From IMG/VR virus record IMGVR_UViG_3300033146_001643, positions 1 to 64,000 of that record: a stretch of 64,000 nucleotides of DNA. One strand, 5' to 3'. How positions within the stretch are numbered: the stretch's first letter is position 1; each line of letters opens with the position of its first letter. This DNA comes from a virus. Shown here one piece after another: positions 1,255 through 27,500 of this stretch. The notes under the pieces are model-generated. The model saw only the letters and a list, made by a program, of their open reading frames with translations, ran no database searches and was not told where the DNA came from. A program made the translations under genes and the position numbers.

Positions 1255-4200
1255 TAGAGCAAGCAACTAATGGATACATAGAGGGAATTGATAGAGATAA
1301 ATCCCCACAATTACCAAATAACTCAACTATGTGGAATAATGAAAATTTTAGAGTTATTACACAAGAGGGTGATAGTACCACAGCTTTATCTAATGTAAAA
1401 GGTAATGCTAGAATATTAGCTACAGACAATACTGTTTTAAAAGTAGAAGATGACGAACATATAATAGGACATGGTGTTATACAAAATGACATAGTTTTAT
1501 TTACTGTGTCTAATGAGTTAGCTTCTAATAAATTACCTAAAGAAGCTAATATCTATTTATACAAATGGCAAGATTCTACTGGAAAATTTGTTCCTAGAAT
1601 ATTACTTTATAATGATGCTGTTAATAGCACAGTAGCAGGATTTAATTTACAAAATGCAATTACTGTAATAACAAGACATGAAACTAATTTTGTGCGTAAA
1701 GTTTACTGGACTGATAATACAAATATAATTAGATATGTAAATATCGCTCCAGATATAGATGACGATGGTGAGGCTAAAGATGGATATTTAGTAACAGACT
1801 ACACTAAGGTACAAAACATGGATATAGAGGATTTTAACATATTACAAAATATGGATATGATAACCCCTGAATTTGATGGTTATGCTAGTGGAGAATTATA
1901 TTCTGGTATGATACAATTTAACTATAGATTTTATAATGTATTTGGTACTGAAAGTATGTTTAATAATGCCAGTGAGCTAATTCCTATCACAGCTGATAGT
2001 CTTATGAGTAATACTCAAAAGATTAAAGGTTCAATGCCAGATACAAATTGTAAAAAATCTGTTAAGGGTAAACTATTATTATCTGGTAATAATTTAAACT
2101 TTGATAGAGTAGAAATTGTATCGTTACATTATGGGGGTATAAATGGAAAACCTACAATAAATGTTATAGATATAATCAAAATAGATAATACTAATGGAGC
2201 ATACACCATACATTTTGAAGATATAGGATTAAATTATATAAATAGTTTAGATTTATCTGAATATAGGGAAATAAAGGCTGATTATGTATGTAAAACCTTA
2301 GAATCTAAAGATGATAGATTATTTATTGGTAATATAACAGAGCAATATTTTGACTTAGATTATGATGCTAGGGCTTATAGATATTCTGACGCAAATAATA
2401 CTAAAGCAGTTGTATATATGGAAAATGGCACAGCGGTAACAGATGATAGGTATGAAATAGATGATAGTGGTAATTGGTCTAAAATAGTTAGCGGAGTTGT
2501 AGTTGATACAGGAACTAATTGGGAATTACCAGAAGATGCTAACGCTATTAATAGGTATAATGACCTTAATAATGATACAGCCGGCTTATACGATTTTACT
2601 AATAGTGCTGGCTCTACTTCTCCTGGAGCTACTGGTGCAAATGTTACGTGTTGGATACAATCTACTGATGTACAAGTAATAGATGAAGCATCTGAGGACG
2701 GTACATTTTATATAGAAGATAATTACGGTTATAGAGATTGGTATTATGGTAAACAACGTGGGTATGCTAGAGGAGAAATATACAGATTTGGCGTTGTCTT
2801 TTATGATACTAAAGGTAGGCAAAGTTTTGTTAAATGGATAGCTGATTTACGTATGCCTAACTCGATAGAAGCTGTACCATTTAATTTATCCAGTAAGGTA
2901 AATGCATTTAATTTGATACCTAAATTCTTTATTTCAAACATACCGCTAGATAAGTACGGCAATGCTTGCTCATACCAAATAGTTAGGGTTAAGCGAGAGC
3001 TGTACGATAGAACTGTTATACTTACTGCTGGTGTACAAAATACTGGTAAATATTCGACTACTAATGATTATCTAAGTAGGAGAAATCAATATGATACAAG
3101 TATCCCTGCTGGTGCATCTCCGATGCTATATGAATTATTATCACCAGAATTAGAAATACAAAATATAGATTTACATGATACTTATTTAGAAGTATATTCT
3201 AAATATAAAGACCCAATAAAGACTACACTAACTAGTAGAAATGCTGGTACTTTCCCAGAATTATTAGTAAGTTGTAAGTATAAAGCACTATTAGCTGGGA
3301 GTTATAAAAAAACTAATATATTATCTAGTACTATTATTAATACTATTCCACATAAACATAATTCAACGCCAGCATCTTCTGGAGGGCTACCAAAAACTAC
3401 ATTAGCTATTAATACGTATTCAGCTACTACTGTGGGTAACACCGCAAGTAATTCTGGTAGGAGTGCGATGCTCCCATTTACATTAATAGAAGTAGAGGAC
3501 ACTCTTGGTATCATAACATTAAGTTATGCTAAAGTCAGAAGAGCTATATTTGGGTATGGCGGTAATTCATACACAGATAGAACTAATAATACTTATATTA
3601 TAGCTGGTGATATAAATGGACAAAAAGCTATTTATGGAGATACAGTAATAAACTACTTTGATAGAATTAGAAATACTGTAACAGCTAATTTTGATAGTAG
3701 TGGTGAACTTGGTCATGTAGCTAATATTGATAAAGCACCAGGTAACGAGAATGAAGGTACTACTAACGTATCATATTTTCCAATAGAGACTTCTATTATA
3801 TTACCATTACTAGCTGATGATGCTCCGCATAAAATGTATAATAATACGTGGACATATCTTTTACGTAATAAAGATAATAGAAAAGTATTTAGTTGTGGTG
3901 ATGATGGTGGAGTTATTACTTTAGATTACCCTGATTTATATAAGTATAATATGGTATATAGTATGGAACATATTGATAAGATATTTTTTCCAAAACCATT
4001 TGACTGGCAAAAAATAACTAAGTATGATGTACGTATACGCTGGAGTGATACTAAATTTAATGGCGAAGAACGAGATTCATGGCTTAAATTCAGAGCTAAT
4101 AATATGCAAGACGTAGATACAGCTTACGGAAGTTTAAATCAACTGGTTAATTTTAAAAATAATATATATGCGTTCCAAGAAAATGGTTTTTGTTTATTAC

Positions 4201-5129
4201 CGATTAATGAAAGAGCATTAACATCTGGTACATCTGGTAGTGTTACTACATTAGGCGAAGGAGCTGTGCTACCTAAACACATGAATTATGCTGTTGGCAG
4301 TACTAATGTTGGATTACAACATACTAATCATGTTGTTCAGTCTCTACAAGCTTTATATTGGTTAGATACAAATAAGCGTAAAGCTTATAGATTTTCAGGT
4401 AGATTGGATAGTTTAGGCGACATAAAAGGATTATCTGCTTATTTTAGAGACACATTAGAATATAATACTACTTTTACAGGGATTTATAACAATCAATATG
4501 CGGAAGTAATGTTTACTTTCAATAATACGACATTAGTGTTTAATGAGATATTAGATAAATTTCAGGGCTGGTTTACACTTAATGCAGCTAGATATATAAA
4601 AACTCCTATATTACTATTATCTACTAAGGATAGTATTGAGTTGTGGCAGCATGACGTTGGGGATAGAGTTGCTTGGTATGGTGATTTATATGTTAGTATA
4701 GTAGAATTAATAGTTAATCCTAATGGTAGTATAACTAAAGAATTTAATAACATATTATATATGTCAGAAGTGTTTGATAAAAATACTAGTATAGATAGAG
4801 CTGACAAAACATTAAATCATATACAAGCTAGCAATGATTATATAGTATCAGATAATATAACATTACTACCATATAAACCTAATGATATATTATATACAGG
4901 GGGGTTAGAAATACCAATTACAGCCCCTAGTACTGTTAAAAATATTAGGCGTAGAGAACGTATGTGGCACACTACTATACCTAGAGTCAATAGTAACAAT
5001 ATTAATTTAGATAATTATAGAATGCGTGATGCGTTTGTTAAATTAAAACTTACTTATGATAATATAAGCCAAGATAGGTTTCTATTATATAATATAAATA
5101 CACTATATAGAATAGCTGATAAAACATAA
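1251..5129 (+). CDS. Tail stabilization/muzzle protein (P22 gp10-like)
   Basis: 1292 aa, beta-rich. Motifs GIDRDKS, ALSNVKGN, VYWTDN, KDDRLFIGNI, GYARGEIYRFGVVFYD, WSDTKFNGE and RMRDAFVKLKL are typical of crAss-like muzzle proteins. Confidence 0.85.
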   Translation: MIEQATNGYIEGIDRDKSPQLPNNSTMWNNENFRVITQEGDSTTALSNVKGNARILATDNTVLKVEDDEHIIGHGVIQNDIVLFTVSNELASNKLPKEANIYLYKWQDSTGKFVPRILLYNDAVNSTVAGFNLQNAITVITRHETNFVRKVYWTDNTNIIRYVNIAPDIDDDGEAKDGYLVTDYTKVQNMDIEDFNILQNMDMITPEFDGYASGELYSGMIQFNYRFYNVFGTESMFNNASELIPITADSLMSNTQKIKGSMPDTNCKKSVKGKLLLSGNNLNFDRVEIVSLHYGGINGKPTINVIDIIKIDNTNGAYTIHFEDIGLNYINSLDLSEYREIKADYVCKTLESKDDRLFIGNITEQYFDLDYDARAYRYSDANNTKAVVYMENGTAVTDDRYEIDDSGNWSKIVSGVVVDTGTNWELPEDANAINRYNDLNNDTAGLYDFTNSAGSTSPGATGANVTCWIQSTDVQVIDEASEDGTFYIEDNYGYRDWYYGKQRGYARGEIYRFGVVFYDTKGRQSFVKWIADLRMPNSIEAVPFNLSSKVNAFNLIPKFFISNIPLDKYGNACSYQIVRVKRELYDRTVILTAGVQNTGKYSTTNDYLSRRNQYDTSIPAGASPMLYELLSPELEIQNIDLHDTYLEVYSKYKDPIKTTLTSRNAGTFPELLVSCKYKALLAGSYKKTNILSSTIINTIPHKHNSTPASSGGLPKTTLAINTYSATTVGNTASNSGRSAMLPFTLIEVEDTLGIITLSYAKVRRAIFGYGGNSYTDRTNNTYIIAGDINGQKAIYGDTVINYFDRIRNTVTANFDSSGELGHVANIDKAPGNENEGTTNVSYFPIETSIILPLLADDAPHKMYNNTWTYLLRNKDNRKVFSCGDDGGVITLDYPDLYKYNMVYSMEHIDKIFFPKPFDWQKITKYDVRIRWSDTKFNGEERDSWLKFRANNMQDVDTAYGSLNQLVNFKNNIYAFQENGFCLLPINERALTSGTSGSVTTLGEGAVLPKHMNYAVGSTNVGLQHTNHVVQSLQALYWLDTNKRKAYRFSGRLDSLGDIKGLSAYFRDTLEYNTTFTGIYNNQYAEVMFTFNNTTLVFNEILDKFQGWFTLNAARYIKTPILLLSTKDSIELWQHDVGDRVAWYGDLYVSIVELIVNPNGSITKEFNNILYMSEVFDKNTSIDRADKTLNHIQASNDYIVSDNITLLPYKPNDILYTGGLEIPITAPSTVKNIRRRERMWHTTIPRVNSNNINLDNYRMRDAFVKLKLTYDNISQDRFLLYNINTLYRIADKT

Positions 5130-10903: not shown

Positions 10904-13900
10904 ATGCCTGAAGATAAAATTAAATTAACCCCAATAACTATTAACGAGAACAGTGTTGCTAATACAAATAGTAATACTATTCCACCAATAGTGCCTAATA
11001 ATAATTTAGGCTTAAATAGTGATGACCCAATGGTTACTGCTAATCAAGCGTTACAAGAGCAAAATACGCAAATAGTTGATTTTAACGCACCAGCTGTATT
11101 GCGAGGTGTTAACACTAGATTAAATTATAATATAGAAGATTATGCTAAATATACTAATGGACATTTAGATGTTCCATGGACTAATGATATTGAAAGTTTG
11201 AACACAATGCGAGCCACTAATCAATCATTATTAGAAAAAGGGTGGAGAACTGTTAACCCATTAGCTAGGATAGCTAGTGTTGGTTTGGGGTTAATTAAAG
11301 ATATTGGTTATATAGCAGAATTACCTGAAGTAGTTATAGGGAAATCTGATTTTAACAATGGTTTAATAGAATGGGCTACTAAAACTAAAAATGATATTAT
11401 TCCTAGAGCATATAGAACTAATCCAGGTAAGACATTTGATTTTGGAGACCCTACGTGGTACTTAAATAATGGAGCTGATTTATGGGATAGTATAAGTGAA
11501 TTTCTCTTACTTGGTTATGGTATTGGTAAAGTAGCATCTTGGACAAGTAAAGGTTTAATTTCTATAGCTAAAACAGGTAAAGCATTAGAGACTGGGATTA
11601 ATTTAACTACTAAAACATTATCTGCGGCTAGTTTAACCTATTTTGAATCTGCTTATGGAGCTACAGATGCGTATCAACGTATCAACACCAGTTTATTATC
11701 ACAAATTAATCCATCTACTGGAAAAATGTTTACTCCAAAAGAAGCACATGAATACGCTAGTGGCGGAGCTTATACTGCATTTGGTACTAATATGGTCGTA
11801 GGCACAATATTAAATATGCCTACAATGGAATTAATTATGCCTGCTAAACGTACTGTAGTTAAAGGAGCTAGTACATTAGCAGGGTTAGAGGGCGAGACTA
11901 TTGCAGAACAACTTACTAGACTACAATCATTGGATTTATCTAATGATATTATTAAAAAGGCTATGACCGAGTATAGTGCAGGAAAAATATTATTAGAAGG
12001 AAATAATGAGGGAATTGAAGAAATATTAAATAATTGGGCAGTACAAGTTGGAGTTGATATGGGGGAAGCTAATGCACAGGGGGATAATCAACATTGGTAT
12101 GAAGCATTTGCTAGAATTGATACTTTAATGAGTCAAGCTATGAGCCCAGAAGGAGTATTAGCTTATACATTAGGGGCTATAGGTGGTATAGGACAAACTA
12201 TGGGAATGAAAGTATTACCTAGTTCTTTAGGGTATGAAAGAGATAAGGGTGGGAATATACAATATACTGAAAGTGGGCAACCAATAAATAAAACTGCTAC
12301 AATACTTGGGCAAGAACGTAATTGGGGATTTAATTTAGCTAATCAAAAAATTGAAGAAAACTTTGATGTGTATAATGTTCAACGAATGAATATTATAAAA
12401 GATTTAGAATTTATAACTGACACTAATAAAAGAATTACTAAACTAGAGAATAGTAATAATTCAGAAGATATTGCTGAAGCCGAAAGATTACGAAATGATT
12501 TATTTGCATTAAGTTCTTATCATTCTGTATTTAATCAACAAGGTGAAAATCTGATTAACACAATGAATACAGTGGCAGCTGCCGATAATACCGTTGTAGA
12601 TAAAGACGGTAAAACTGAAGCTATGCGATTAGGTATTACAAATAAACCAGACTCCGCTGTATATAAAAGCGACCATAAAGAAAAGGCTTTAGAATTAATA
12701 CCTGTAATACAAAAAGTAAATGCTGTGAATAAACGGATAATGCAAAAATATAATACAGAACAAGATATGTATTATGGTATTCCTGGATTAGTTGCAGATG
12801 TAGCTATACAAGCAACAATGGCTGAAGAAGCTTTAAATAATAAACTTACAGATAATGCTGTTAAATATGCAAATTTAACTGCATTTGGTAAATTACAATT
12901 GCAACAACAAGTGTTATCTACTATACTAGCGGATAAAAAGTCTTTTGCTTCATATATAGAGAATATAAAAAAAGAAGTGCTTAGGAACAGACCCGCATTT
13001 ATAACTGATAATAAAGTAGAACAAATAACTAGGTATAAAAAAGTACTTAAAAATAAATTAAAAGCAATAGAATCGCAATTAAAGACATTTGAAAATGCAG
13101 ATAATAAAATAGTTTTAAATAATACTACTACTGAAAACGCATTAACCGATATAGATAATATTACTGATTTATTAGTAGAAGAGGAGTTACTTAAAATGAA
13201 TAGTTTTGTTAATAACGCTTCTTATAAATATATAATTAAACGAAGTACTTTATCTAAGGTAAAAGAACAAAAAAATAAATTATATGAAGCTACAAAATTA
13301 GCACAAAAAAAAGCTAGGGATAAAAAAGTAAAAGCTGTTAAGACTAGAATGGCTAAAGATATTAAGAATACTATAACAAGAAATAAGAAAAAAGATATTA
13401 AGAAAGCACAAGAGGTTAATACTACAGATAACACAACTATTAAAAATACTAAAGACGTTGAAATTAAAAATACTACATCTAAAGATAATAATACAATCAT
13501 TTCTGGTGAAGTGATAGTAAAACAAGTACGAGCACAAGAAGTGGTAGACGCCCTAAAAGCTATATTAGTATTATTAGATGATACAGAAGCTGTGCAAAAA
13601 ATAGTACAACAATTAGACGATTTTAACGCTAAAAATCAATACAAGGAACAATTATCTACACTAATTGCTATAACTAAACAATTAGTAATTGAATATAATG
13701 GTGATAGTTTAATAACTGATATTATCAATAAACAATTAGCTGAAGTTATTGTTTTAGAAAATATCAGGAACGCGAATAATACGCAAACAAAAGTTAGCAA
13801 TAAAATAGATAATTTAACTAATGAGCAGTTATCTACAGAGAAAGAAATTGATATAATAAAGTCTAGTAAAGTGGCTAAACCAATTCTTATTACGCCACAA

Positions 13901-16900
13901 AATACCGAAGAATTGGTGGGTATAATAGATATTCTAAAAACTATAATATTATTATTACCTGAAAATAAAGATACAAAAATAGTATCTAATAAATTAGATA
14001 CTTTAAATACAGAAACCTTAGATAGTACTGATATAGATAACTTATTAGCTCTAACAAATAATATAATAAATAGTTCAAAAATAGATGTAGATATAAAATT
14101 AACAATACAAAATTTATATAGTAACGCTATTATAAATAATAAAACTAGGTTAGCTAATAATGAAATAACTAATGCTGCTAATGATTTATTAAACACTTTT
14201 GAAGCTATAACTTCAGATACTACAGCTAGTGATGCAATTAAAGCTTCTAAACGTGGAGCTGCCTTTTTAAATTTAATTGCTCTAGCTGCTAAAGATGTTA
14301 AATCAATAGGGTTAGATATGTATAGAGATACATATAAAAGAGTACTAGTTGCTAATAATTGGAAAGAAAATGATATTAAACGTATTCACGAAATGTTTAG
14401 TACGCTTATACCATTTGCTGAGACATCTGTTGGACATGCCCCAAGTACTTATGATATAGCGTGGCAATTTAAAAATACCGTTAATTATAAAGGCGATATT
14501 ATTGATATGGCAGTACAGACAGGTAATACTGGTAAACCTTATGGATTTAGTGAAAATTCAAGTATAGAGCAACAAACTGAACAAGTAGCTATCACAGCTA
14601 AAAATTATAAAAAAGTAAATAATCCTTCAGAAAGTATTGCCAATAAAGAACAGGAAGGTGTATTGGATAAATCTACTGGTAAATATATTAATGTAGATAA
14701 TGTTACTACGTTCAGTGTAGCAGATAATATAAATATTGGTGATGAAATAATATTTAAGGTTGATACTCATTATGACGGATATATAATTACAGATATAGGG
14801 GAACGTGTCATTTGGGAAGATTATAGTAAAAATCTGGGTAAAACTTCTTCTGAATATATTAACAATGTACCAATAAAAATAACTACTAAAGATGGTAAAC
14901 TATTAGGGTATCTACATACTATTAATTGGTTATCCGAAAGTAATAATAATGTACAAGATAATATTGATATAGCAGCACACAGTACGAATCTGAATCAAAT
15001 ACGTAGAACTATTATAAATAGTGATACTCCCATTATAAGTACTGTAACTGTTAAAAAAGCTGGTTCTATTAATACAACTTATGATAATAGTAAAAATTTA
15101 GTATCAGTACAAATGCCTAATTTAAAAAATGGGGCTATAGTAGTATTTAGAAATGGTAAGTTTGAACAAGTTAAGAACAAATCTGTAGCTGTTGATAATT
15201 TACATTGGTTTAATGATTTTATATTTAGTGGCATGCCAGCTGTACTCACCACAATGAGTAATGGTGAAACTTATGCTGTACCAGTAACTAGTACTAAATT
15301 AGGAGATAAAGTAAATAGTGAGTTATTAAATGGTATAATTAATTTAATACAACTATACGCTTCTCCAAAAACAGAAGAAAATAAAATAAGTAGGAACAAT
15401 ATTGCAAAAGAATTTGGTTTTGATTCTTTATCAGCTACTACTTTATATACTATAATTTCTAAATTAGTTTATTTAGAGGGATTTACAGATGAAACTATAA
15501 TGGATTTAGCTGCTAATCAAGATAGTAAAGTACGAGACTTATTTAATATTAATAAAAAGACTGGAACTATAAGATTTGCTACTACAGCTACTAATGATAA
15601 GATTACACCTTATACTATATATGAGTTACATCAAAATGGGAATATTTTTATTAAAAAGCCTAATAAGGATAAACAAATTTTAGATAAGCAACAACTTACG
15701 AATAGTTTAGATGATATACTTGTTAAATTATCAAGTATTCTAAAAAATAAAGTAGTTAATACTGACTTGGAGATGTTAAATAACTCTGAAGTATTTATGA
15801 TACCATATACTGATGATGACGGTATAAAAGTTGTTAAATTTGAATCGTATGAAGAGTTTATTAAAACTAAACTCCTTACCAATATAGTAGAAAAAAGACA
15901 ATCTATTGGTGGTAAAATTAAAATAATTCATTCAGTACAATCTACCGTAGAATTTGACTCTACATTCGCTAATACTACTAGGCAAGAAGATTCAGATATA
16001 GCTACTAATATTAAAGATAGTATTATAGAAAAAGAAACTTCTCCCTTAGATGATTTATTTGGTAAGCAAGAATCAATGGAAGAATACACAGCTAAACAAC
16101 TAAGTAAGCCTAAATTGACAATAACTTCTGAACAGCAAGAACAGCTTAAAAATCTTGGCTATACACAAGAAGAAATTAATAAAATTAACCCTGCTGTTGT
16201 TACTTCAATATTAACTTATAAAATTAAACCAGCAGTAGAAGTTACTATATCTACTGAAGAAAAAAATATTAAATTAAAAGCTGCAAGGGAAGCTAGATTA
16301 CTTAAAAGAAAGTCTAAGAAAAAAACTACTAAAAAGATTATCAATAGTTTTGAAGCCATAACATCTAATAATAATACATTTTCTGCACTAAGCAGCACTG
16401 ATAATATTACTAATATATTAGATGCTGCATTAAAAGAATCATTAATACCTGGATTATCTAGTTATGAACAACATACTGTATTAATGAATACAATTAATAT
16501 TATTAAAGACCATATTGACGGAGACTGGACTAAGGAATCTATATCTCAAACTATAGAAGCGATATTTAATCATTATGTTGATATAAGTATAGCTTTAGAT
16601 ATAGTTAAAGATGAACAAGAATTAGACGTAATTGAAGATATAAGTGAGGAGTCTGAAGCTATACAAAATTTAATTGATACATTTAGAAAATTATCTTTAC
16701 CAAGAATACTTAGTATGAAATCAATATATGATGTTATTTCTGATGATGCTAATTATAATAAATTAGTTGATATAGTATTAAAAGATTTACAAACACATGG
16801 AATACAACTAACACAACAAGTAGATGCAATTGATGAAACAACTGATTCTGAAATGGAAAATGATAACGAAACTAGTGATATTACTATTAGAAATAAATGG

Positions 16901-19900
16901 AATATAGAAAATGCTAGCGTAAATACATTTGATAGAACGTCAAGTGAATTTAAAGCTATAATTAGAACTATTCCGCAAATGGATTTTGTGCATAATACTG
17001 ATGGCACAATCAAATTTGAAAATGGTGAACCTGTTATGCAAAAAATACTTAATGTAATGGGGACAACTGAATTTGTAGAACCAGAAAGAATACAACAAGA
17101 ACTATTTTTATTATTACAAAAATTTAGTCATTTATCAACTGGTGAAAAATATAATGCTTATATTAAAACACTATTATCAACTGACCATAACACAGCTCAT
17201 CTAGTCGTACTTGGAAAAATGTTTCAAGAAGCATCTGACAAGATAAAAGCTGAATTAATAAATACAATTAGTACCCAAAAAACTAATGCTGCTATAGTAA
17301 TATGGAAAAAGAATTTAGGTGTTGATAATAATGTGCATTATGGTATGTATGTTAAAAATAGTTCTAAACCACATGAGCTGGATAAACTTAGGAGTATTTG
17401 GAATAGTCATCAGACACAGCAAATAACTAATAAACTTATTGAGAACAACGCTAAGGGTTTACCAATAGTAAAAGCAACGAGAGTCGCTTATTGGCAAAAG
17501 TATTATATGTCGATGCTTACTGATATAAAAGTTAAGAATTTACTAATACACGCTGAAAATAAAAATAATAAAAATAATAAAACAAAGCGTAAATTACTAG
17601 AATTACCAAATATGCCTGATAATTTAGTACTTAAACTATTTAATGAGATAGGGATAAATTTAACTCAAGAACAATTAAATGAATTAAAACATATAGAGAC
17701 TAATGAATTATTAAAATCATTTTTCAACCATAAAAATATGCCTAGCGTATTTAGAATAACTAGATATCCTGATTTATTTATACCCAATGGACTTATTGAT
17801 ACTATGATTAAAGACATGGGAAATCCATTAATAGATGAGTTATTATTTGAAAATAACCCATTAACTAGTATTAACTCAAAAGTGCTAGATGCTATAGCTA
17901 ATGTACAATTAAGTATAGAAGGTGGGTATGGTACAACTACATTCACTAGAGGTAACGGAACTATGCAGCAAACATATAGCCAAAATACAGCTTTATCGCA
18001 TAAAATGAATAGACTATTGGATATAAAAGAATTACCTAATGGTGGACAAGAGATGTCAAGTGAATTTAATATGCACGCAAATAGTAATATACAATATAGT
18101 GGTAGAGATAATAATGGGGAACATAAATCTAAATGGTTAGATGATATTGAAAATGGTAAGGCAGGGCAATTCCAAGTTGGGGTTGTAGATAGCTTAAAAC
18201 AGGGGGGTGTTGATAAATCTGCTGTTTTACGAACAAAAGCTACTAGAAATGAATTATTAGTTGATGAATTAGCTAGATTTACTAATTCTGGTAATAAAAC
18301 AGCACAATTTTTAATATTAGCTTTTTCTGATAAAAGTACAGCAGCAACAATAACTGCACCTAAAATAGTTACAGATATAAGTTTTTCTAATAATAAACCT
18401 AAATTTAGACAACTACAACGTAATCAAATTTGGCAATATATATTATTACCTGAAGTAGATAGAATAAATAATCATGCAAAACGAATTATTGATGGCACTA
18501 TTACTAGGAATACTTCTGGAAATCAATATTATGAAGGTGGTCTTTTATTTCAATTAACTCCATACTTGAATACACATGAATTGATGCTAGGTGATAAGGC
18601 TATGAGAAACGAAGATGGTACAATTGATGTTACTCCAGAAACTAAGCAGTTATTAATAGATGTTGTAGAAAAAGAAATATTAGCTAGTGCAGAAGAAACT
18701 AAGGCTGACATGTTATCAGCAGGTATGTTTAGAACTAGAACAGTAAAAAATAAAAATGATAATTCAGAGACTACTATTGATGAATTACATTTTGTAGATA
18801 AACAATATTTAAGAACACTAGATAATACATTAACTACTAAACAAAAATTACAATATATAGCAATAGATTTTGCTTTTAATAAAGCTATTGCTACGACGGA
18901 GTTTACTAAATTATTTGGTGGAGATATGGCTAATGTATATAAGAATAAAGGAATATCTAAAAATAAACAATTAAATACATTTATCAAAAATAATAAATTT
19001 AATTATGTACAATATTTAAACGCTAATAAAAATATACTGCAACAACAAATAGCTAAACAATGGGGAGAATATATTAAGAGAATGGCTAAAGATATAGCTC
19101 CTGGTATAGATGGGTATTGGGTTGATAGTGAGGGGAGAAATCATAATATATTTAATCAAGCATATATTAATGACTTATCCCTAGATTTAAGTGGGTATAC
19201 TGGTGTGGAAGGAGGCGATGCTCAACAATATTCTACATTAAAAGAATTTGTTATTGTACAACATGGGTATGGAAAAATATCTGATGACACTTATTCAGAA
19301 CTAATGGCTCAAATTGAAGAAGTCGAACTTATAAATAAAGAAATTATTGATAAAAATAAAGATAAGCCATTGAGTGAAATACTACCATTATTAGAACATG
19401 TGGATTTAACTAATGATTATTTAACAGAATTAGAAGAAGCTGTTAGAATATCACCATTAAAACCTGTATACGTAGGAGATGTAATTAACGAAGAACAAGG
19501 TAGAATTGATAAAAAATATATTAAAGTAGCAGTATTCCCACTTATAGGGAACGCCACTACTGGTACAGAGATTGATTATTTAAGAAGAAGAATGGAGTAT
19601 GAAGAAATAATTACTGGTAAGCCAGTTAATATAACATATACATCAGGTGTTAAAATTGGATTAAATAATGTAAGTACTGTATGGAAACCTAATACTACTA
19701 CTAATGCTACACATGCTGTAGCTAATAAACACGGCATAGAAAATATGCAATTTGAACAATTGCATAGAGACGGGTATAGAATACAACAAGAAGAACCAAC
19801 ACATGTTCATACAGAAACTGTAACAGTTACACAAGCTAACAAATTGTTATGGAGTGGTATTATGCGTATATTAGATAATACTGGTGTACTTTCTGGGTTT

Positions 19901-22900
19901 AAACATAATGGTAGTGATATGAACGTTGAGGAGTTAAAAGAGCAATTTCACACAATTAAAAAACAATTATCAAATAATGGCGTAGACCAGTTAAACAGGC
20001 GATTAGGATTGAACACTGACGGTACGTTTAAAGATTTAACTAAATTAGTAGCATTAATTAAAGATGAGATGTATACAAGAAATTACCCAGAATCTGATAT
20101 AGCTAGTATGGAAATGACGTCTATTGATGGACAACAACAAATTAAATTACCAATAGCTTTTCAAGGTAATGGACAACGCATAGAAGCATTAATTAATTCA
20201 ATAATAACTAAAGAGACTATTAAAACTAAAATGCCTGGCAGGTCTTATGTTCAAGTATCTGGACATGGTATTGGGTCAGTCAAATCATTAAGCAATACAC
20301 AAAAATCTGATATAGTTTTTACTGAATTATATACAGATAACCATTTAAAATTTGTAACTAATGAAAATGGTGTTGTTACCTATGCTCAATGTTTAGTGCC
20401 GTTTAATATAACAGCTCCAAATGGAGAATTATACAAAATAGAAGATTTTTTAATTACTAAAGATGGTAAACAATTATTAGATACAACTAGACTACCTAAA
20501 GATATATTAAAACTAATAGGGTTACGTATTCCTAATCAAGGGCATAGTTCAATGTTATTACTTGAAATAGCTGGATTTTTACCAAGTTATATGCATGATA
20601 ATATAATAGTACCCCCAGAAATAACTGCTCAAATGGGGGCTGACTTTGATTTTGACCATTTATATACATATAGTTTTAATACAGAACAAAGATTAACTGC
20701 TGAAGCATTTAATACTTATAAAGAACAATTTGATAATTTAATTGATACTAGGGGTATAATAAAATATATGAATCAACAAGTAGCTGAAAAATATGTAGGC
20801 TTACAAAATAAATTACAAACAGCTACAGAAGATGATAAGAAAATTATCAGTAAAGAAATTAAAAAGTTACAATTAAAAGCTAAAAAGAAATTATATATAG
20901 AGTTTTTAAATAATGGAAATAATGTTGTTATTGCTAAAATTAATAGTGCTGTAACAGATTATTCTATAGCTTCTAAAGAGGAGTTACAGAATGCTTATGT
21001 AGAAACATTCCATACTGTACTTAGTCATACTGCTGTGGCTAAAAAAATGACTACCCCATTAGATTTGCCTTATTTAGCTAGTGAGGCTGATAAAATAGAT
21101 AAAATTATAAATAGTATAGGGGAAAATAATTTCAACCCATTATCAACACGATTCTCTACTGATATGTATTTAGCTAATCAAGCTGGTAAATTAGGTGTAG
21201 CTATACAAAGTATAGCGTCAACATTTTTAGCTTTAATAGAAGATAAGTCTTTAAAATTAACTAACTCGGTAAATAGAAATAAAATTGACCTTAACATAAA
21301 AATTAGTACTGATAATGGAGTAATTAAATTAAATAAACTTGGTCTAGGTAATTATACCAACACTAAAGGTGATAATATATCAAATGCTGACATATTGTTA
21401 ATGTTACAAAACGAAGCTGTAGATAATGCAAAAAATCTTAACCTAGCATCTTTGTTTTATAATAAAGATACAGCTAGTATTTATAATGTATTAGCTATGT
21501 TGATTAGTAACAATAAAGAAACTTTACCATTAGAATTTCTAGTTAGATTTATAAACCAGGAAGCTATTAAAAGTTATATTAATAAATTACAGGAAACTAG
21601 TAGCACTATAGCAGAATTTACACCTAATGCTAAACAAAAAATATTTGATGATTTACTAAAAGAATATATTAATAAAGGGGCTAATAAAACAGAAATTAAT
21701 AATTATGTGGGAACAATATCTAATGGAAATTATACTTATACATATACAGAGTCAGACTTATTAAAAGCATTAAAAAGTAAAAAGCGGGATTCTAATTATT
21801 ATCAATTACAAGCAGAAACATTAATATTTGTAAAAACATTAATGGATAACGTTATACAACCAGTTCAAAATGTAATATCAGCTACTAATGGCATAGACAC
21901 AGTTGGATTAGGAAAAGATATATTTACTACTATAGCTAAACAACAAGCAGTACAAACATATTTATTAGAAAATAGTGTAGTACTTGGAGCTGGGTCTATA
22001 ATATATGATACTGATAACAATTATACGGAAATTGGTACTATGTACAATAATAGTGTAAACTTATCATTAAAAATATTAAGTACTACAACTAATAATGACG
22101 GAACTTCTATTTTACCTTACACGTCTAAGTACGCAGAAAAAATATTTATGAATTATGCTGATATATTAGGTAAAGACATACTATCTGTACAAGATTATAA
22201 AGATATATGGCGTGCTACTAAACAGCTTATAGTTAGTAAAATTATATATAATACTACTAATGCAGATAGTTTAGCAAACTTACGTAAAAGTTTATTTTTT
22301 GGAGATACTTCATTAGGAGTACAGCTTAAAAACGTAGAAAATGAGCCGTGGTTTAAAGAAAATAGATTCTTACTAAATGGTATAAATAGATTAATTGTTA
22401 AAGATGATAATGTTATAAAATATAATAAAGAAACGTCTAAATATGAAGCATTAAACAATACAACTCCTATATTAGTTAAATATGAAATGGGGGTTAAGAA
22501 AGATACAGATGACTATAGAAATATAGAAGCTATATTAGAGTTATTATATACATCTATTAGTGAATATGAAACTATAAAAGATAATATATTAGATACAGAT
22601 ATACATAAAGCTATTATTACTAAATATGAATTTGCTCAAAGTTTAGTTAACTATACTATATTAGAAGGAGGTATACAAAATGCTCAAAACTGGGTTAAGT
22701 ATTTACCAATATCATATTTAGAAGCTATAGGATTTAATAAATCAATTAGAGATATAAACTTTAATTCTATTGATGTATATGATACAATTAGTAGCCCAGA
22801 AGTAATTATACGACAATATCTACAACATAACCCTAAAAAGGCTAAAACTTTTAATCCACAATATGTTAAAAGCACTACTAAAAATAATAATATAATCACA

Positions 22901-24562
22901 TTACCATCTGCGTATGAAAAAAATTCTCCATATAGCGATATTATAAAAATAGAGATTATAGCTGGTGAAGAATATAAATCTTATCCACAATATATTAAAT
23001 ATTATGATGTAGCAACACATAAATATTATTTGTATGAAAACACAGATAAAAATAAAAATGAAACTGATATAATATTTAGAAGATTGCCACTACTAGGAAC
23101 TGATAAGTTAGGATTTAATGAATATGATGGAACAATACAGTATGCTCAAAGTAATTTAACAGATAAACAAATCTATACAGAACAAGAATTAATTGAATTA
23201 AACAAAGTTACCGAGATAGCAACTATTCCTAATATGTTATCTAATATATATGATGATACAATATTAACAACTCCTACTAGTGAAAGTATTTGGAATAGAG
23301 TAGAGGAGTTAGCTAATAACAATACTATGTTTAGTGTAGCAGCTAAAATATTGTTGGCGAATAAAGATTTAGCTAAAGAATTTGAAGTAACTATTAATAA
23401 TTCAGGTGCACGTGGTATGACTAGAGTACATAATAATACAAAAGATTTAAAAACAATAGATATATCACCTAGACTATTTGAAACTACTAAAACTAGTGGT
23501 AATGTAGAAGCACAACAAACTGAATTAAATGAGATAGTTTTACATGAAATGTTACATGGAGTATTATCTAAAATTATAAATAATGCTATGAATGGTGTTG
23601 GCAATAATAATACCATTAAAGCAGTACAAGAATTAGATAACTTACGAAAAAGTATAATAAAAAATAACCAAGTTGAATTTAATGCTTATATGGATACTAG
23701 GGGTGTATCAAGTACAGCTGAAAATATAGCTAAATTTGAAGGATTAACTAATATACATGAATTTTTTAGTTATGCTTTTACTAATAGCAGTTTTCAAAAC
23801 TTTTTAAATACACAGGCTAGAACAGATAATGGTAAGGGTACTTTATTAAATCAATTATTAGAGTTATTAAGCGTTATTTTAGATACTACTATATTAGAGA
23901 ATATTGCAGAAGATAAAGCTTTATATCAAGTATTAAGTATGGGAGTAACTGCTTTTACTAAAATCATACCGCCTAATACTCTGATAAATAATAATTCAAA
24001 TAATAATTATTCAGCTATAACATCAAAATCTTTAAATCAAGCTTATATAGATAATAAGTTAATTAATAAAGATAATACGTATAAACGTTATAGTATAACA
24101 GATAATAACTATAAAAAAATATTAAAACAAGTAGCTAATATAAATAAACAAAAATTACCATATAAAGCTAAAATAATAAAAATAGTTGGAGAACGTGGAG
24201 ATAATAGACCTATGGCGGCAATTGATAAATATTATAAATATTCTGTAGAACAACAATTATATAATAACTCTTTTGTAGAACCTATAAAACCGTTATCTTT
24301 GCAGGATATACAAAATAAATATGAATTAACTACTAAAACTGGTATTATGAAAGCAGTAATACCAACAAATAGTAATTATGAAAGATTACTACAAACAACA
24401 ATAAAAATAAATAATGATATAGCAGTTAATCATATAGCAAATGTTATTAAAACCAAAATTAACAATAAAACAATGTATACAATAGAGTTATTAAATACAT
24501 CAACTCCTGTTGATATATTATATGCTAAAGCTACTAATAACACTAATAAAATAGACTGTTAA
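10904..24562 (+). CDS. Giant virion-packaged RNA polymerase polyprotein (crAss/phi14:2 gp66-like) with C-terminal zincin domain
   Basis: 4552 aa. LRIPNQG precedes the catalytic GADFDFD (nt 20642-20656, ~aa 3247). Zincin EIVLHEMLH (nt 23543-23557) is followed by HEFFSYAFTN. Hydrophobic Gly/Ala-rich segments occur in the N-terminal part. Confidence 0.9.
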   Translation: MPEDKIKLTPITINENSVANTNSNTIPPIVPNNNLGLNSDDPMVTANQALQEQNTQIVDFNAPAVLRGVNTRLNYNIEDYAKYTNGHLDVPWTNDIESLNTMRATNQSLLEKGWRTVNPLARIASVGLGLIKDIGYIAELPEVVIGKSDFNNGLIEWATKTKNDIIPRAYRTNPGKTFDFGDPTWYLNNGADLWDSISEFLLLGYGIGKVASWTSKGLISIAKTGKALETGINLTTKTLSAASLTYFESAYGATDAYQRINTSLLSQINPSTGKMFTPKEAHEYASGGAYTAFGTNMVVGTILNMPTMELIMPAKRTVVKGASTLAGLEGETIAEQLTRLQSLDLSNDIIKKAMTEYSAGKILLEGNNEGIEEILNNWAVQVGVDMGEANAQGDNQHWYEAFARIDTLMSQAMSPEGVLAYTLGAIGGIGQTMGMKVLPSSLGYERDKGGNIQYTESGQPINKTATILGQERNWGFNLANQKIEENFDVYNVQRMNIIKDLEFITDTNKRITKLENSNNSEDIAEAERLRNDLFALSSYHSVFNQQGENLINTMNTVAAADNTVVDKDGKTEAMRLGITNKPDSAVYKSDHKEKALELIPVIQKVNAVNKRIMQKYNTEQDMYYGIPGLVADVAIQATMAEEALNNKLTDNAVKYANLTAFGKLQLQQQVLSTILADKKSFASYIENIKKEVLRNRPAFITDNKVEQITRYKKVLKNKLKAIESQLKTFENADNKIVLNNTTTENALTDIDNITDLLVEEELLKMNSFVNNASYKYIIKRSTLSKVKEQKNKLYEATKLAQKKARDKKVKAVKTRMAKDIKNTITRNKKKDIKKAQEVNTTDNTTIKNTKDVEIKNTTSKDNNTIISGEVIVKQVRAQEVVDALKAILVLLDDTEAVQKIVQQLDDFNAKNQYKEQLSTLIAITKQLVIEYNGDSLITDIINKQLAEVIVLENIRNANNTQTKVSNKIDNLTNEQLSTEKEIDIIKSSKVAKPILITPQNTEELVGIIDILKTIILLLPENKDTKIVSNKLDTLNTETLDSTDIDNLLALTNNIINSSKIDVDIKLTIQNLYSNAIINNKTRLANNEITNAANDLLNTFEAITSDTTASDAIKASKRGAAFLNLIALAAKDVKSIGLDMYRDTYKRVLVANNWKENDIKRIHEMFSTLIPFAETSVGHAPSTYDIAWQFKNTVNYKGDIIDMAVQTGNTGKPYGFSENSSIEQQTEQVAITAKNYKKVNNPSESIANKEQEGVLDKSTGKYINVDNVTTFSVADNINIGDEIIFKVDTHYDGYIITDIGERVIWEDYSKNLGKTSSEYINNVPIKITTKDGKLLGYLHTINWLSESNNNVQDNIDIAAHSTNLNQIRRTIINSDTPIISTVTVKKAGSINTTYDNSKNLVSVQMPNLKNGAIVVFRNGKFEQVKNKSVAVDNLHWFNDFIFSGMPAVLTTMSNGETYAVPVTSTKLGDKVNSELLNGIINLIQLYASPKTEENKISRNNIAKEFGFDSLSATTLYTIISKLVYLEGFTDETIMDLAANQDSKVRDLFNINKKTGTIRFATTATNDKITPYTIYELHQNGNIFIKKPNKDKQILDKQQLTNSLDDILVKLSSILKNKVVNTDLEMLNNSEVFMIPYTDDDGIKVVKFESYEEFIKTKLLTNIVEKRQSIGGKIKIIHSVQSTVEFDSTFANTTRQEDSDIATNIKDSIIEKETSPLDDLFGKQESMEEYTAKQLSKPKLTITSEQQEQLKNLGYTQEEINKINPAVVTSILTYKIKPAVEVTISTEEKNIKLKAAREARLLKRKSKKKTTKKIINSFEAITSNNNTFSALSSTDNITNILDAALKESLIPGLSSYEQHTVLMNTINIIKDHIDGDWTKESISQTIEAIFNHYVDISIALDIVKDEQELDVIEDISEESEAIQNLIDTFRKLSLPRILSMKSIYDVISDDANYNKLVDIVLKDLQTHGIQLTQQVDAIDETTDSEMENDNETSDITIRNKWNIENASVNTFDRTSSEFKAIIRTIPQMDFVHNTDGTIKFENGEPVMQKILNVMGTTEFVEPERIQQELFLLLQKFSHLSTGEKYNAYIKTLLSTDHNTAHLVVLGKMFQEASDKIKAELINTISTQKTNAAIVIWKKNLGVDNNVHYGMYVKNSSKPHELDKLRSIWNSHQTQQITNKLIENNAKGLPIVKATRVAYWQKYYMSMLTDIKVKNLLIHAENKNNKNNKTKRKLLELPNMPDNLVLKLFNEIGINLTQEQLNELKHIETNELLKSFFNHKNMPSVFRITRYPDLFIPNGLIDTMIKDMGNPLIDELLFENNPLTSINSKVLDAIANVQLSIEGGYGTTTFTRGNGTMQQTYSQNTALSHKMNRLLDIKELPNGGQEMSSEFNMHANSNIQYSGRDNNGEHKSKWLDDIENGKAGQFQVGVVDSLKQGGVDKSAVLRTKATRNELLVDELARFTNSGNKTAQFLILAFSDKSTAATITAPKIVTDISFSNNKPKFRQLQRNQIWQYILLPEVDRINNHAKRIIDGTITRNTSGNQYYEGGLLFQLTPYLNTHELMLGDKAMRNEDGTIDVTPETKQLLIDVVEKEILASAEETKADMLSAGMFRTRTVKNKNDNSETTIDELHFVDKQYLRTLDNTLTTKQKLQYIAIDFAFNKAIATTEFTKLFGGDMANVYKNKGISKNKQLNTFIKNNKFNYVQYLNANKNILQQQIAKQWGEYIKRMAKDIAPGIDGYWVDSEGRNHNIFNQAYINDLSLDLSGYTGVEGGDAQQYSTLKEFVIVQHGYGKISDDTYSELMAQIEEVELINKEIIDKNKDKPLSEILPLLEHVDLTNDYLTELEEAVRISPLKPVYVGDVINEEQGRIDKKYIKVAVFPLIGNATTGTEIDYLRRRMEYEEIITGKPVNITYTSGVKIGLNNVSTVWKPNTTTNATHAVANKHGIENMQFEQLHRDGYRIQQEEPTHVHTETVTVTQANKLLWSGIMRILDNTGVLSGFKHNGSDMNVEELKEQFHTIKKQLSNNGVDQLNRRLGLNTDGTFKDLTKLVALIKDEMYTRNYPESDIASMEMTSIDGQQQIKLPIAFQGNGQRIEALINSIITKETIKTKMPGRSYVQVSGHGIGSVKSLSNTQKSDIVFTELYTDNHLKFVTNENGVVTYAQCLVPFNITAPNGELYKIEDFLITKDGKQLLDTTRLPKDILKLIGLRIPNQGHSSMLLLEIAGFLPSYMHDNIIVPPEITAQMGADFDFDHLYTYSFNTEQRLTAEAFNTYKEQFDNLIDTRGIIKYMNQQVAEKYVGLQNKLQTATEDDKKIISKEIKKLQLKAKKKLYIEFLNNGNNVVIAKINSAVTDYSIASKEELQNAYVETFHTVLSHTAVAKKMTTPLDLPYLASEADKIDKIINSIGENNFNPLSTRFSTDMYLANQAGKLGVAIQSIASTFLALIEDKSLKLTNSVNRNKIDLNIKISTDNGVIKLNKLGLGNYTNTKGDNISNADILLMLQNEAVDNAKNLNLASLFYNKDTASIYNVLAMLISNNKETLPLEFLVRFINQEAIKSYINKLQETSSTIAEFTPNAKQKIFDDLLKEYINKGANKTEINNYVGTISNGNYTYTYTESDLLKALKSKKRDSNYYQLQAETLIFVKTLMDNVIQPVQNVISATNGIDTVGLGKDIFTTIAKQQAVQTYLLENSVVLGAGSIIYDTDNNYTEIGTMYNNSVNLSLKILSTTTNNDGTSILPYTSKYAEKIFMNYADILGKDILSVQDYKDIWRATKQLIVSKIIYNTTNADSLANLRKSLFFGDTSLGVQLKNVENEPWFKENRFLLNGINRLIVKDDNVIKYNKETSKYEALNNTTPILVKYEMGVKKDTDDYRNIEAILELLYTSISEYETIKDNILDTDIHKAIITKYEFAQSLVNYTILEGGIQNAQNWVKYLPISYLEAIGFNKSIRDINFNSIDVYDTISSPEVIIRQYLQHNPKKAKTFNPQYVKSTTKNNNIITLPSAYEKNSPYSDIIKIEIIAGEEYKSYPQYIKYYDVATHKYYLYENTDKNKNETDIIFRRLPLLGTDKLGFNEYDGTIQYAQSNLTDKQIYTEQELIELNKVTEIATIPNMLSNIYDDTILTTPTSESIWNRVEELANNNTMFSVAAKILLANKDLAKEFEVTINNSGARGMTRVHNNTKDLKTIDISPRLFETTKTSGNVEAQQTELNEIVLHEMLHGVLSKIINNAMNGVGNNNTIKAVQELDNLRKSIIKNNQVEFNAYMDTRGVSSTAENIAKFEGLTNIHEFFSYAFTNSSFQNFLNTQARTDNGKGTLLNQLLELLSVILDTTILENIAEDKALYQVLSMGVTAFTKIIPPNTLINNNSNNNYSAITSKSLNQAYIDNKLINKDNTYKRYSITDNNYKKILKQVANINKQKLPYKAKIIKIVGERGDNRPMAAIDKYYKYSVEQQLYNNSFVEPIKPLSLQDIQNKYELTTKTGIMKAVIPTNSNYERLLQTTIKINNDIAVNHIANVIKTKINNKTMYTIELLNTSTPVDILYAKATNNTNKIDC

Positions 24563-24586
24563 TATAAACATATAAATAATAAATAA

Positions 24587-27500
24587 ATGAGTTGCCCTAA
24601 TAAAAATAATCCAGCCTGGAAGCTTCTAGTTATGAAACTAGGAGCTGACAATGCTATGCGAATATTTAAAGAGAATAATGATAATATACCACCAACAGAG
24701 ATAATTAATCAGTTGTCAATTATGTATAATAATACACAAACTAAAGTATCTATATCCAATCAAAAGATACCACAGGTATTATTAGATGAAATAAATACTA
24801 AGTATAACCTTGCTGATAGTAAAGGGAGATTACGTAAATTTAATAATGTTGAGGCTATGTTAGATAACCTCAATAGATTGCCAGGTTTTACTTTTATAGA
24901 AGTTAATAATAATGATGGAACTTCATCTATACAAGCATTTCAACAAGTTGTTAGTAATACAGATAATGATGCGGAATTTGCAGCTATAAGCAGTGAAAAG
25001 CAAAAAGATAAGCTTAAAACAAGGTATATTACATTACGTAATATAGAAGAGCTAGTTTTACCAGAAGATATTAAATTGGGGGTATTAAAATTGATTGAAC
25101 AACGAGACTTGATTAGGTCAACAATGAATAGAGACAAGTCAAAAACCGCCGCTATACAACTTGAAATTGACGATATTAATCATGTAATTACAGAAATAAT
25201 TATAAGTAAGAAATCATTAGAGCTTGTAGATATAATGGAACATAGGATTAATAGTGCTACTGCTAGGTTGAAAACTTCGGGGAATTTAACCCCAACTGGG
25301 TTAAGAATACTGTATTCTGAAATATTAGTTTGGACTGATTTAATTAATAAATGGCAAGACCCAGCTAATTCTCATTTAGAGGCTCATAATAACCCAATTG
25401 TACAACAAAGAATAGCTGGGCTATATGGTTCTTTATCAATAATACAAGCGGATTTTTTACATCTACAACAACAGCTTTATAAAAACGAAATGAATAAGTT
25501 ATTGCCACGTGAGCTTAAAGATGAAGACTTAACAAGAAGTAGGGAAATAACTAAAGCCAGGAGAATGACTACTGATTTATCTGAAGTACGAGATAGACTA
25601 GTACAATCTATAGATAAACTATTAAAAGGAGCGGATAGAAGTAGTATGAATGATTACAATAAACAAGCTAAGACTTTAGAAAATAAACTAGCGTATTTTA
25701 GAAAAAATGGACTACAATTAGATAGTAAAGAATTTAGAGATGTATTATTGCAAAAAGATAAAGATGGTGAATTAACTGGTGAGTTGGTAGATGAGCGTAG
25801 TGCTTTGTTTGAAGATATGGAGAAGAAAAATATAGCTGACAAAATATCACTTAGGTATATGGAGTCTATAAAAGGAATGTTTAGAAAAGTAAAAAGTATA
25901 AAATCATGGGAGTCTTCTGTATATATAACAGTTGATTTAGCGATGTTGCAAAATAATAAAAAGGTTGAGTTAAATAGATTAGTCGACTTAGTTGGCGAAG
26001 TTAGAGCTAAAACACTAATAGTCGATGCTGAACTTAAATATGAAGAATATAAAGCTGCTTTAGCCCACATGAAAATTATATTGGAAGAGCGTATAAAATA
26101 TGATAATGATTATAATGAGGCAGATGCTACAATAGAAAAATTTATAGGTGAACAGTCAGAAAAAAATGCTCTTATAGATGAAAAAGTTTCAAATGCGATT
26201 AGAAAATGGGAAGATAGGAATAACCCATTAAATTATACTAAATATATAACTGATACAACGCCTACCACTTATGCTATGGAGACTAATTATGTAGCTAAAA
26301 CATTAAATAGGTCTGCGTATAATGGTAAAGTGTTCAATGAGCAATTTAAAGTTATTGAGGATAATGATTTAATGTATGAATTTTATATATGGTATGTAGA
26401 ACAATTGCAAATACAAAAAGCTAAATTACCGCAAGATGTACTAGATAATATGAGCTATACATTTTTACCTGAAGTGTACAAAGAAATGACTGAAAAATTA
26501 TCTTCTGGGAAAAATGGATTAGCCAGTGTGCCTGGAAGAATATTCGAGATGTTAAAGTCTGGGGAAATAGCTGACTCATTTTTACAGAGTATAGCTGTTG
26601 ACAATAAGGTAGATAATGATAATTTATACGATAGTGCAGGAAATAAAAAGCGTGCTATACTAGTTAAATACACTAATAATAGTATAGAAATACATAAAAA
26701 AACATTAGATAACTTAGTTGTTAATAAAAGTGTATTGGAGGCTAAGCAAGCTAGTGCTTTAAAAATAATAGCTAATAATCCATCAGGCACAAAGACATAT
26801 ATAGATGCATATACTTATTTAAAAAAATCTAAAAAAGAATTAGTTAAAATTGAGAAACAAGTTGAGATAACAACTAAAAAATTAGCTACTATTAGGCGTG
26901 ATAGAAGTACTGATTTAGTGGGTGTATTAAAAGCTTTTACATTAATGGCTACGTATCATCAGCATAAAGCTATAGTAGAAGACCATGTATTAGCGGGGAG
27001 GCGGATATTAGAAAATATAGCTATGGTAGAAACCAAAGATGGCTCATTTGTAAATAAGTCAGAAGGGGCTGTGCAATTAAAAGCTGCAACTGATTATGCT
27101 ATAAATGCTGTATTATACGAAGAACAGCGTATAGATAGGCAACCAAGTGATAATGCTATATATATTAATAAAGATACTAGACAACAAAAGAAAAAAATAG
27201 ATAATGAAATGAAAGCTTTGGATAAAGAGTTTGCTAATGGCGATATAACAACCGAGGAATATAATATTGCTATAAAACATAAAGAACAAGAATTGGGGGA
27301 ATTAACTGGTAAAGCTGTAAGTTGGAGTAAAGTATTTGATAAATTCTTAACATATACACAATTAAAAGGACTTGGTTACAATGTACAATCAGCAGCTATC
27401 AATTTAATATATGGGTTGATTTCTAATCAAATGTATGCAGCGTCCTCGGAAGATATAGATAATAAATCATTAGTAGAAGCTTTTAAGATTATGAAGGGTA

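Follow-up and report, generated by a model that had tools for sequence, protein, structure and literature searches.

A recurrent seam motif in the giant cargo proteins of an uncultured crAss-like phage: a candidate junction code

In some crAss-like phages, the cargo proteins are fused into one polyprotein that has been described as "likely cleaved," and cleavage of such fused polyproteins has been proposed in the literature without a site. Whether the seams of a fused cargo chain carry a mark of their own, and what would read it, is the question raised by the window analyzed here, namely the whole stretch of 64,000 nucleotides at the start of IMG/VR record IMGVR_UViG_3300033146_001643, which comes from an uncultured crAss-like phage, measures 76,983 bp and has direct terminal repeats. 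This window encodes a giant cargo protein, P0001, in which module A, module B, a two-barrel virion RNA polymerase (RNAP), a zincin and a C-terminal tail follow one another, and the next cargo protein, P0002. The hexameric motif [FY]-x-A-[IL]-[TS]-S occurs five times in these products, four times in P0001 and once in P0002 (Table 1). It is probable that the five copies represent a real, lineage-specific seam motif and act as a functional seam element of some kind; the motif would belong among the junction codes of viral polyproteins. The more specific reading, in which the copies are release sites cut at the Ala-[Ile/Leu] pair by the built-in zincin after delivery, is preferred, though only tentatively.

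A first-pass annotation of the window, made from its letters alone, had listed the five copies and proposed that they mark processing sites, and all five were found at the positions that it gave. A six-frame scan of the whole 76,983-bp genome detected a relaxed form of the motif, among real genes, in P0001 and P0002 only. In the AlphaFold2 (AF2) models, which were built on shallow alignments (16 and 32 rows) and in which a low predicted local distance difference test (pLDDT) value is no proof of disorder, copy 1 lies at the C-terminal end of a helix (aa 1062-1103; pLDDT ~54) that is followed by a low-confidence stretch of ~120 amino acids (aa), the segment that holds copies 2 and 3, past the folded module B, has a pLDDT <50, and copy 4 lies in a predicted coil (pLDDT 32-43). 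None of the motifs falls within a confidently folded domain. Their linker positions at the module borders flank the DFDFD motif of the RNAP and the HEMLH motif and E4286 of the zincin, in agreement with the earlier observation that the copies bracket the RNAP-plus-zincin block. The accompanying statement that most copies follow low-complexity linkers holds for copy 2 (KRKSKKKTTKK) and copy 5 (NTDNDAE) and fails for copy 1, which ends a long predicted helix.

Such positions could also be expected of a real feature without any reader, either a relic of duplicated linkers or a structural preference (a helix end or a linker start) at domain borders. The two FEAITS copies are similar across 11 residues, copy 1 caps a predicted helix, a short helix follows copy 4, and the alignment with the relative L003 runs on into the next small domain, all of which would fit this explanation. 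On the other side, the flanks of the FEAITS copies are unrelated, and three of their six codons differ synonymously (the first-pass annotation had counted four), which argues against a recent duplication. Together with the conservation in a sister clade described below, these points make a feature without a reader an improbable explanation.

The placement of the motif is not random. The four independent motif clusters all lie within junction zones, an arrangement with a chance probability of ~0.0006 when local composition is considered, which is optimistic because the zones were drawn after the sites had been seen. With windows set from homology alone, the comparison of seam 1 with seam 2 gave p = 0.007, and the best 8-mer pair in all three seam comparisons was the [FY]-x-A-[IL]-[TS]-S motif. 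The blocks of P0001 that are conserved in BLAST comparisons with distant homologs are located at aa ~10-620, 1197-1720 and 1976-4360, and none of the copies falls into one of them. In 21 loci of relatives in which the genes are split, the protein comprising modules A and B ends at the P0001-equivalent position ~1771-1804, and in one locus (L061) the RNAP protein starts at the equivalent of ~1814. Thus, the place of copies 2 and 3 is one at which genes naturally begin and end.

The recurrence of the motif is, by itself, borderline. Composition predicts 0.04 copies of a motif that was, in this calculation, defined after being seen. When all reduced-alphabet hexamers containing no more than one wildcard were scanned without bias, the motif ranked first in P0001 and P0002 together (p 4e-7); a motif of equal strength appeared in 4.7% of the global and 2% of the local shuffles, which corresponds to a family-wise p of 0.02-0.05. 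The evidence is borderline because 2-5% of shuffles equal the motif, because P0001 alone is unremarkable (p 6e-6, which does not surpass the leading motifs in 22 homologous giants), and because a scan for 9-mers with up to three wildcards revealed no excess in the real giants, whose distribution is identical to that of shuffled sequences. The last two of these results would fit a coincidence, in which a degenerate hexamer was defined post hoc in 5900 aa of biased composition; by our own estimate, a protein of such length should contain about one hexamer that is repeated exactly, the motif occurs in no relative, and distant giants lack seam motifs. Against this explanation stand the family-wise p for the two proteins together, the location of all clusters in junction zones, the p value obtained with the homology-based seam windows, and a sister-clade motif that is conserved at these seams and shares the Ala-aliphatic core. 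Coincidence is therefore regarded as improbable, to about the same degree as a feature without a reader. An element acting at the DNA level was rejected as an explanation, because a DNA pattern derived from the copies is not enriched (8 matches versus 3.8 +/- 2.0 expected). Counts of hexamer neighbors based on BLOSUM were dropped, as they were dominated by composition bias.

Protein searches with P0001, P0004 and aa 1050-1950, and scans of IMG/VR, metagenomes and genomes, identified no relative with more than ~35% identity to P0001. In L003, which is 35% identical and has both genes, the sites aligned by BLAST read AMAVAS for FSALSS, RALSTK for SAITSK and EYALVTE for EFAAISS; the apparent retention of an Ala-aliphatic core at or beside the three aligned sites is weak evidence for conservation. 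The sister clade, comprised of P0004 (~30% identical to P0001), P0032 and P0033, is more informative. P0004 harbors a 15-residue triple at aa 1091, 1728 and 4500 with a score of 43, which is higher than that of all 175 local shuffles (mean 34.3, standard deviation 1.6) and of every other giant tested. P0032 (43% identity) and P0033 (35%) were found after this triple had been recognized, and in the three proteins the motif [DE]-x-A-[ILVM]-x-[FYW] is present, with acidic flanks, at all nine of the orthologous linker sites (three per protein), while the linkers have diverged with large indels. Since the motif has been kept at 35-43% identity amid diverging linkers, selection appears to act on the sister-clade motif itself, which also argues against a feature without a reader. 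Two of the three sites correspond to the seams of P0001 copies 1 and 2/3, and the third lies 13-20 residues before the C-terminal Cys. An Ala-aliphatic pair is common to every seam site, in P0001 and P0002 as well as in the sister clade. These comparisons indicate that recurrent, selected seam motifs exist in this family neighborhood and have the Ala-aliphatic pair in common with P0001. A fourth copy of the sister-clade motif was observed within the RNAP region (P0032, aa 3440; P0033, aa 2456). A three-way MAFFT alignment of the linkers was set aside as unreliable, as it placed YDNAL of P0004 against YSNAI of P0001 (aa 1072) rather than against FEAITS.

By its DFDxD motif (defined in bioRxiv 10.1101/2020.03.07.982082), its homology and its gene order, P0001 is a predicted Crassvirales virion RNAP (vRNAP), and 200 relatives were retrieved with the patterns QMG[SA]D[FN]D and NQGH[SN]SM. 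In the zincin, H4214, E4215 and H4218 are nearly invariant (at least 90%) and E4286 is invariant in 32 homologs, among which sequence conservation ends at aa ~4353, short of copy 4. A profile of the zincin matches the ejection proteins 9sfn_G (5e-18) and 8vb2_A (2e-9) of the PDB. Foldseek returned only weak matches to the model of the domain (lethal factor, E 0.03; Spartan, probability 0.95 over 89 columns; 4l7a), and the score for the SprT-like family of Pfam was below the cut-off. The active-site signature is intact and conserved, and the domain is a predicted peptidase. Thermolysin-type zincins are suited by a small P1 residue and an aliphatic P1′ residue. No other peptidase family was detected in 22 virion-module proteins scanned against PHROGs.

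A model based on these features would be as follows. The chain would be ordered as module A, module B, RNAP-zincin, a Cys-tipped connector made of the P0001 tail and the P0002 head, and the P0002 core, and it would remain intact during packaging and threading through the tail. Cleavage would follow delivery and would take place at the invariant Ala-[Ile/Leu] pair, with the built-in gluzincin as the most likely enzyme, and the fused protein would then yield the pieces that split relatives encode as separate genes. Several elements of this model are inferred: recognition of all copies by a single partner, the identity of that partner as the zincin, the cutting of a bond, and its timing. If the copies are cleavage sites, the enzyme could instead be a host protease or an unrecognized phage protease. 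The seam placement is equal under both explanations, and the zincin may instead digest the cell wall or activate the RNAP, as has been proposed in the literature; however, the PHROGs scan mentioned above revealed no protease family, and the motif does not occur in the capsid, the portal or any other gene, unlike prohead-protease motifs, which mark several head proteins. Cleavage by an enzyme other than the zincin is accordingly the least likely of the explanations considered, and very unlikely in absolute terms.

The timing assumed in this model comes from the cysteines. P0001 contains Cys at residues 3163 and 4552 only, P0002 contains Cys3 only, and copies 4 and 5 flank the Cys4552/Cys3 junction, one on each side. 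Of 58 distinct junctions between cargo-block genes of relatives, 54 show a C-terminal Cys of the upstream protein facing an N-terminal Cys of the downstream protein. Fused giants carry no more than two Cys residues, six of them are free of Cys, and a Cys at a fused seam was seen in none. Where the RNAP itself is split, at the P0001-equivalent position ~3050-3100 (L066, L077 and L080), a Cys pair is located at the junction. The module B/RNAP junction of one clade (L019, L028, L030, L034, L036, L051, L057 and L062) shows an upstream tail NPF-x-[KR]-C and a downstream head M-x-C with a conserved NG ~5 residues on. In phage A4, Cys1715 of gp27 is disulfide-bonded to Cys5 of gp26, beside the C-terminal docking helix of gp27 (PMC12002296). 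By analogy, the terminal Cys pairs suggest that the chain is kept joined in the virion and that its continuity is selected for. Therefore, any cutting at the seams should follow injection rather than accompany maturation. The last predicted helix of P0001, VDILYAKATN (aa 4536-4545; window 24440-24559), precedes the terminal Cys and aligns with ADILLNTAML in L003, and it may be the counterpart of the docking helix of phage A4.

The same evidence bears on a quite different function, in which the motif is an uncut docking or tether element: a short peptide at the end of a module would fit into a groove of the following module or bind a putative common partner in the virion (for instance, the portal or the tail barrel), and would thereby order the cargo for packaging and ejection. 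The third sister-clade copy precedes the terminal Cys by 13-20 aa, and in phage A4 the C-terminal helix of gp27 docks into gp26 next to the disulfide. Furthermore, copy 1 of P0001 ends a long predicted helix, the cargo protein gp45 of crAss001 has segments that bind both portal and tail barrel, and the terminal-Cys rule argues for selected chain continuity. On the other hand, the C-terminal helix of P0001 (VDILYAK) is unlike the FEAITS family, a motif with some four apolar positions is short for a docking helix, and four of the five copies lie in predicted coil or low-confidence segments. Docking is a possible explanation that is nearly as likely as cleavage by the zincin.

Several observations, besides the borderline recurrence and the shallow AF2 alignments, weigh against cleavage by the zincin. 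In the literature, neither proteomics nor biochemistry documents cleavage in a crAss-like phage, the structural atlas of crAss001 does not mention proteolysis, and the vRNAP of phage N4, which has an HExxH domain, is packaged unprocessed. The third sister-clade copy is located in a helix just before the terminal Cys, which favors docking. A gene boundary at the site at aa 1099 is present in no relative. As to conservation in orthologous linkers, on which the first-pass annotation had made its proposal depend, the exact motif occurs in 0 of 22 homologs, L003 keeps an Ala-aliphatic core at the aligned sites, and the sister clade conserves a different motif at the seams. No seam motif was found in 12 more distant giants, and the motif is therefore not a general feature of crAss phages; a general seam code across crAss giants was rejected for these 12, and recurrent 9-mers are in no excess over shuffles. 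Finally, phages in which the genes are separate retain the zincin as well, and it must therefore have another role. Cleavage by the zincin is nevertheless retained as the preferred, if tentative, reading. A broader and more speculative reading, which we consider rather doubtful, is that two interchangeable releasable couplings are used at the same crAss-like seams: split genes would employ a terminal Cys-Cys link that is opened in the reducing cytoplasm, and fused genes would employ a lineage-specific peptide code centered on Ala-[Ile/Leu/Val] that is cut by the zincin after injection. If this were true, crAss vRNAP polyproteins, whose processing has long been proposed, would have in this motif their first recognition code, and the code would co-evolve with its protease between sister clades.

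Table 1. Positions of the cargo genes, domains, motif copies and terminal cysteines in the window, and of the motif sites in the sister clade.
Feature	Position	Strand	Basis or remark
P0001, giant cargo protein, 4552 aa	10904..24562	+	Open reading frame (ORF); homology to crAss-like giant virion proteins
Copy 1, FEAITS (aa 1099-1104), module A/module B seam	14198..14215	+	Sequence match
Module B folded core (aa ~1270-1690)	14711..15973	+	AF2 pLDDT 70-92; conserved in relatives
Copies 2 and 3, FEAITS-NNNT-FSALSS (aa 1816-1831), module B/RNAP seam	16349..16396	+	Copies at nt 16349 (aa 1816) and nt 16379 (aa 1826)
RNAP catalytic DFDFD (aa 3247-3251)	20642..20656	+	D3247, D3249 and D3251 invariant in alignment A1
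Zincin-like domain (aa ~4126-4354), HEMLH 4214-4218 and E4286	23279..23965	+	AF2 pLDDT 80-96
Copy 4, YSAITS (aa 4369-4374), 15 aa past last zincin helix	24008..24025	+	Sequence match
P0001 C-terminal tail (aa 4375-4552), last residue Cys4552	24026..24559	+	Low-confidence AF2
Facing Cys pair, P0001 Cys4552/P0002 Cys3	24557-24559 and 24593-24595	+	Sequence
P0002, next cargo protein, 1340 aa	24587..28609	+	ORF; single Cys at residue 3
Copy 5, FAAISS (P0002 aa 131-136), after N-terminal head and run NTDNDAE	24977..24994	+	Sequence match
Sister-clade motif sites	P0004 aa 1098/1735/4507; P0032 aa 1027/1664/4286; P0033 aa 323/993/4044		

The genes for P0001 and P0002 lie near those for the terminase, the portal and the major head protein, in the gene order typical of crAss phages. 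In a tblastn search, giant virion proteins from crAss-like phages of Flavobacterium, Cellulophaga and Bacteroides matched P0001 in its central part, and in FpV4, which has a fused protein of 4287 aa (gp32), the giant protein and its neighbor are laid out in the same way as P0001 and P0002. P0002 is 34% identical to the L003 neighbor over its full length, and conservation of its N-terminal 250 aa was seen in L003 only. In many relatives (L015, L016, L004, L042, L032, L055, L048 and L010), the C-terminal domain of the P0002 homolog (~560 aa) is fused onto the end of the giant, resulting in ORFs as long as 7317 aa. Scans of the three cargo proteins against Pfam and PHROGs gave almost no matches. 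An earlier companion idea, that a module of 55-65 aa is repeated in the P0001 tail and the P0002 head, found no support in BLAST (best E 0.04, in a tiny database). Three ORFs of 145-186 aa are nested within the giant gene on the opposite strand (13636-14196, 18550-18987 and 23173-23616, minus); they were taken as spurious rather than as genes.

Crassvirales are the most abundant human gut phages, and their infection starts with a giant RNAP that is injected as a protein. How this RNAP is activated and whether fused crAss polyproteins are cut are questions that have stood since 2018-2020, and a candidate site makes them directly testable, since the bond and the protease domain are both specified and specificity can be controlled with the sister-clade variant. 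Should the motif prove to be a docking element, it would show how an ordered cargo train is assembled. Cleavage and docking alike bear on the passage of megadalton-scale protein cargo through a phage tail.

Among the known systems that resemble this locus, the pre-ejectosome of cyanopodophage A4 is similar in that successive ejection proteins meet with a C-terminal and an N-terminal Cys, as do Cys4552 and Cys3; by contrast, the seam motif has no counterpart in A4, and the Cys pairs of crAss-like phages are putative disulfides. Prohead proteases also recognize short degenerate motifs that are repeated in packaged proteins, where they mark trimming: gp21 of T4 cuts at [LI]-x-E and gp175 of phiKZ-like phages at [SAG]-x-E, and these motifs are present in many head proteins, which are cut in the prohead by a dedicated serine protease. 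The motif of P0001 and P0002 differs from them in being confined to two cargo proteins, no protease family of that kind was found in the proteins scanned, and the Cys junctions argue against cutting before ejection. Polyvalent proteins are likewise giant, multidomain and injected, with an internal HExxH-plus-Glu domain, and for their zincin-like domains, including those of the phage P1 DdrB precursor and the N4 vRNAP, autoprocessing has been predicted at a site that was not named (Iyer et al. 2017, PMC5512222). P0001 and P0002 add to this prediction a candidate site motif. The closest parallel is the RNAP cargo block of Crassvirales (gp65-gp66-gp67 of phi14:2; gp47, gp49 and gp50 of crAss001), which likewise consists of giant virion proteins with a DFDxD two-barrel RNAP and a zincin-like domain and adjoins the genes for terminase, portal and capsid. 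Descriptions of its members include neither a recognition motif nor cleavage, whereas in the present phage modules A and B, the RNAP and the zincin are united in one protein of 4552 aa that is at most 35% identical to any sequence found and that, together with P0002, carries a candidate code at its seams.

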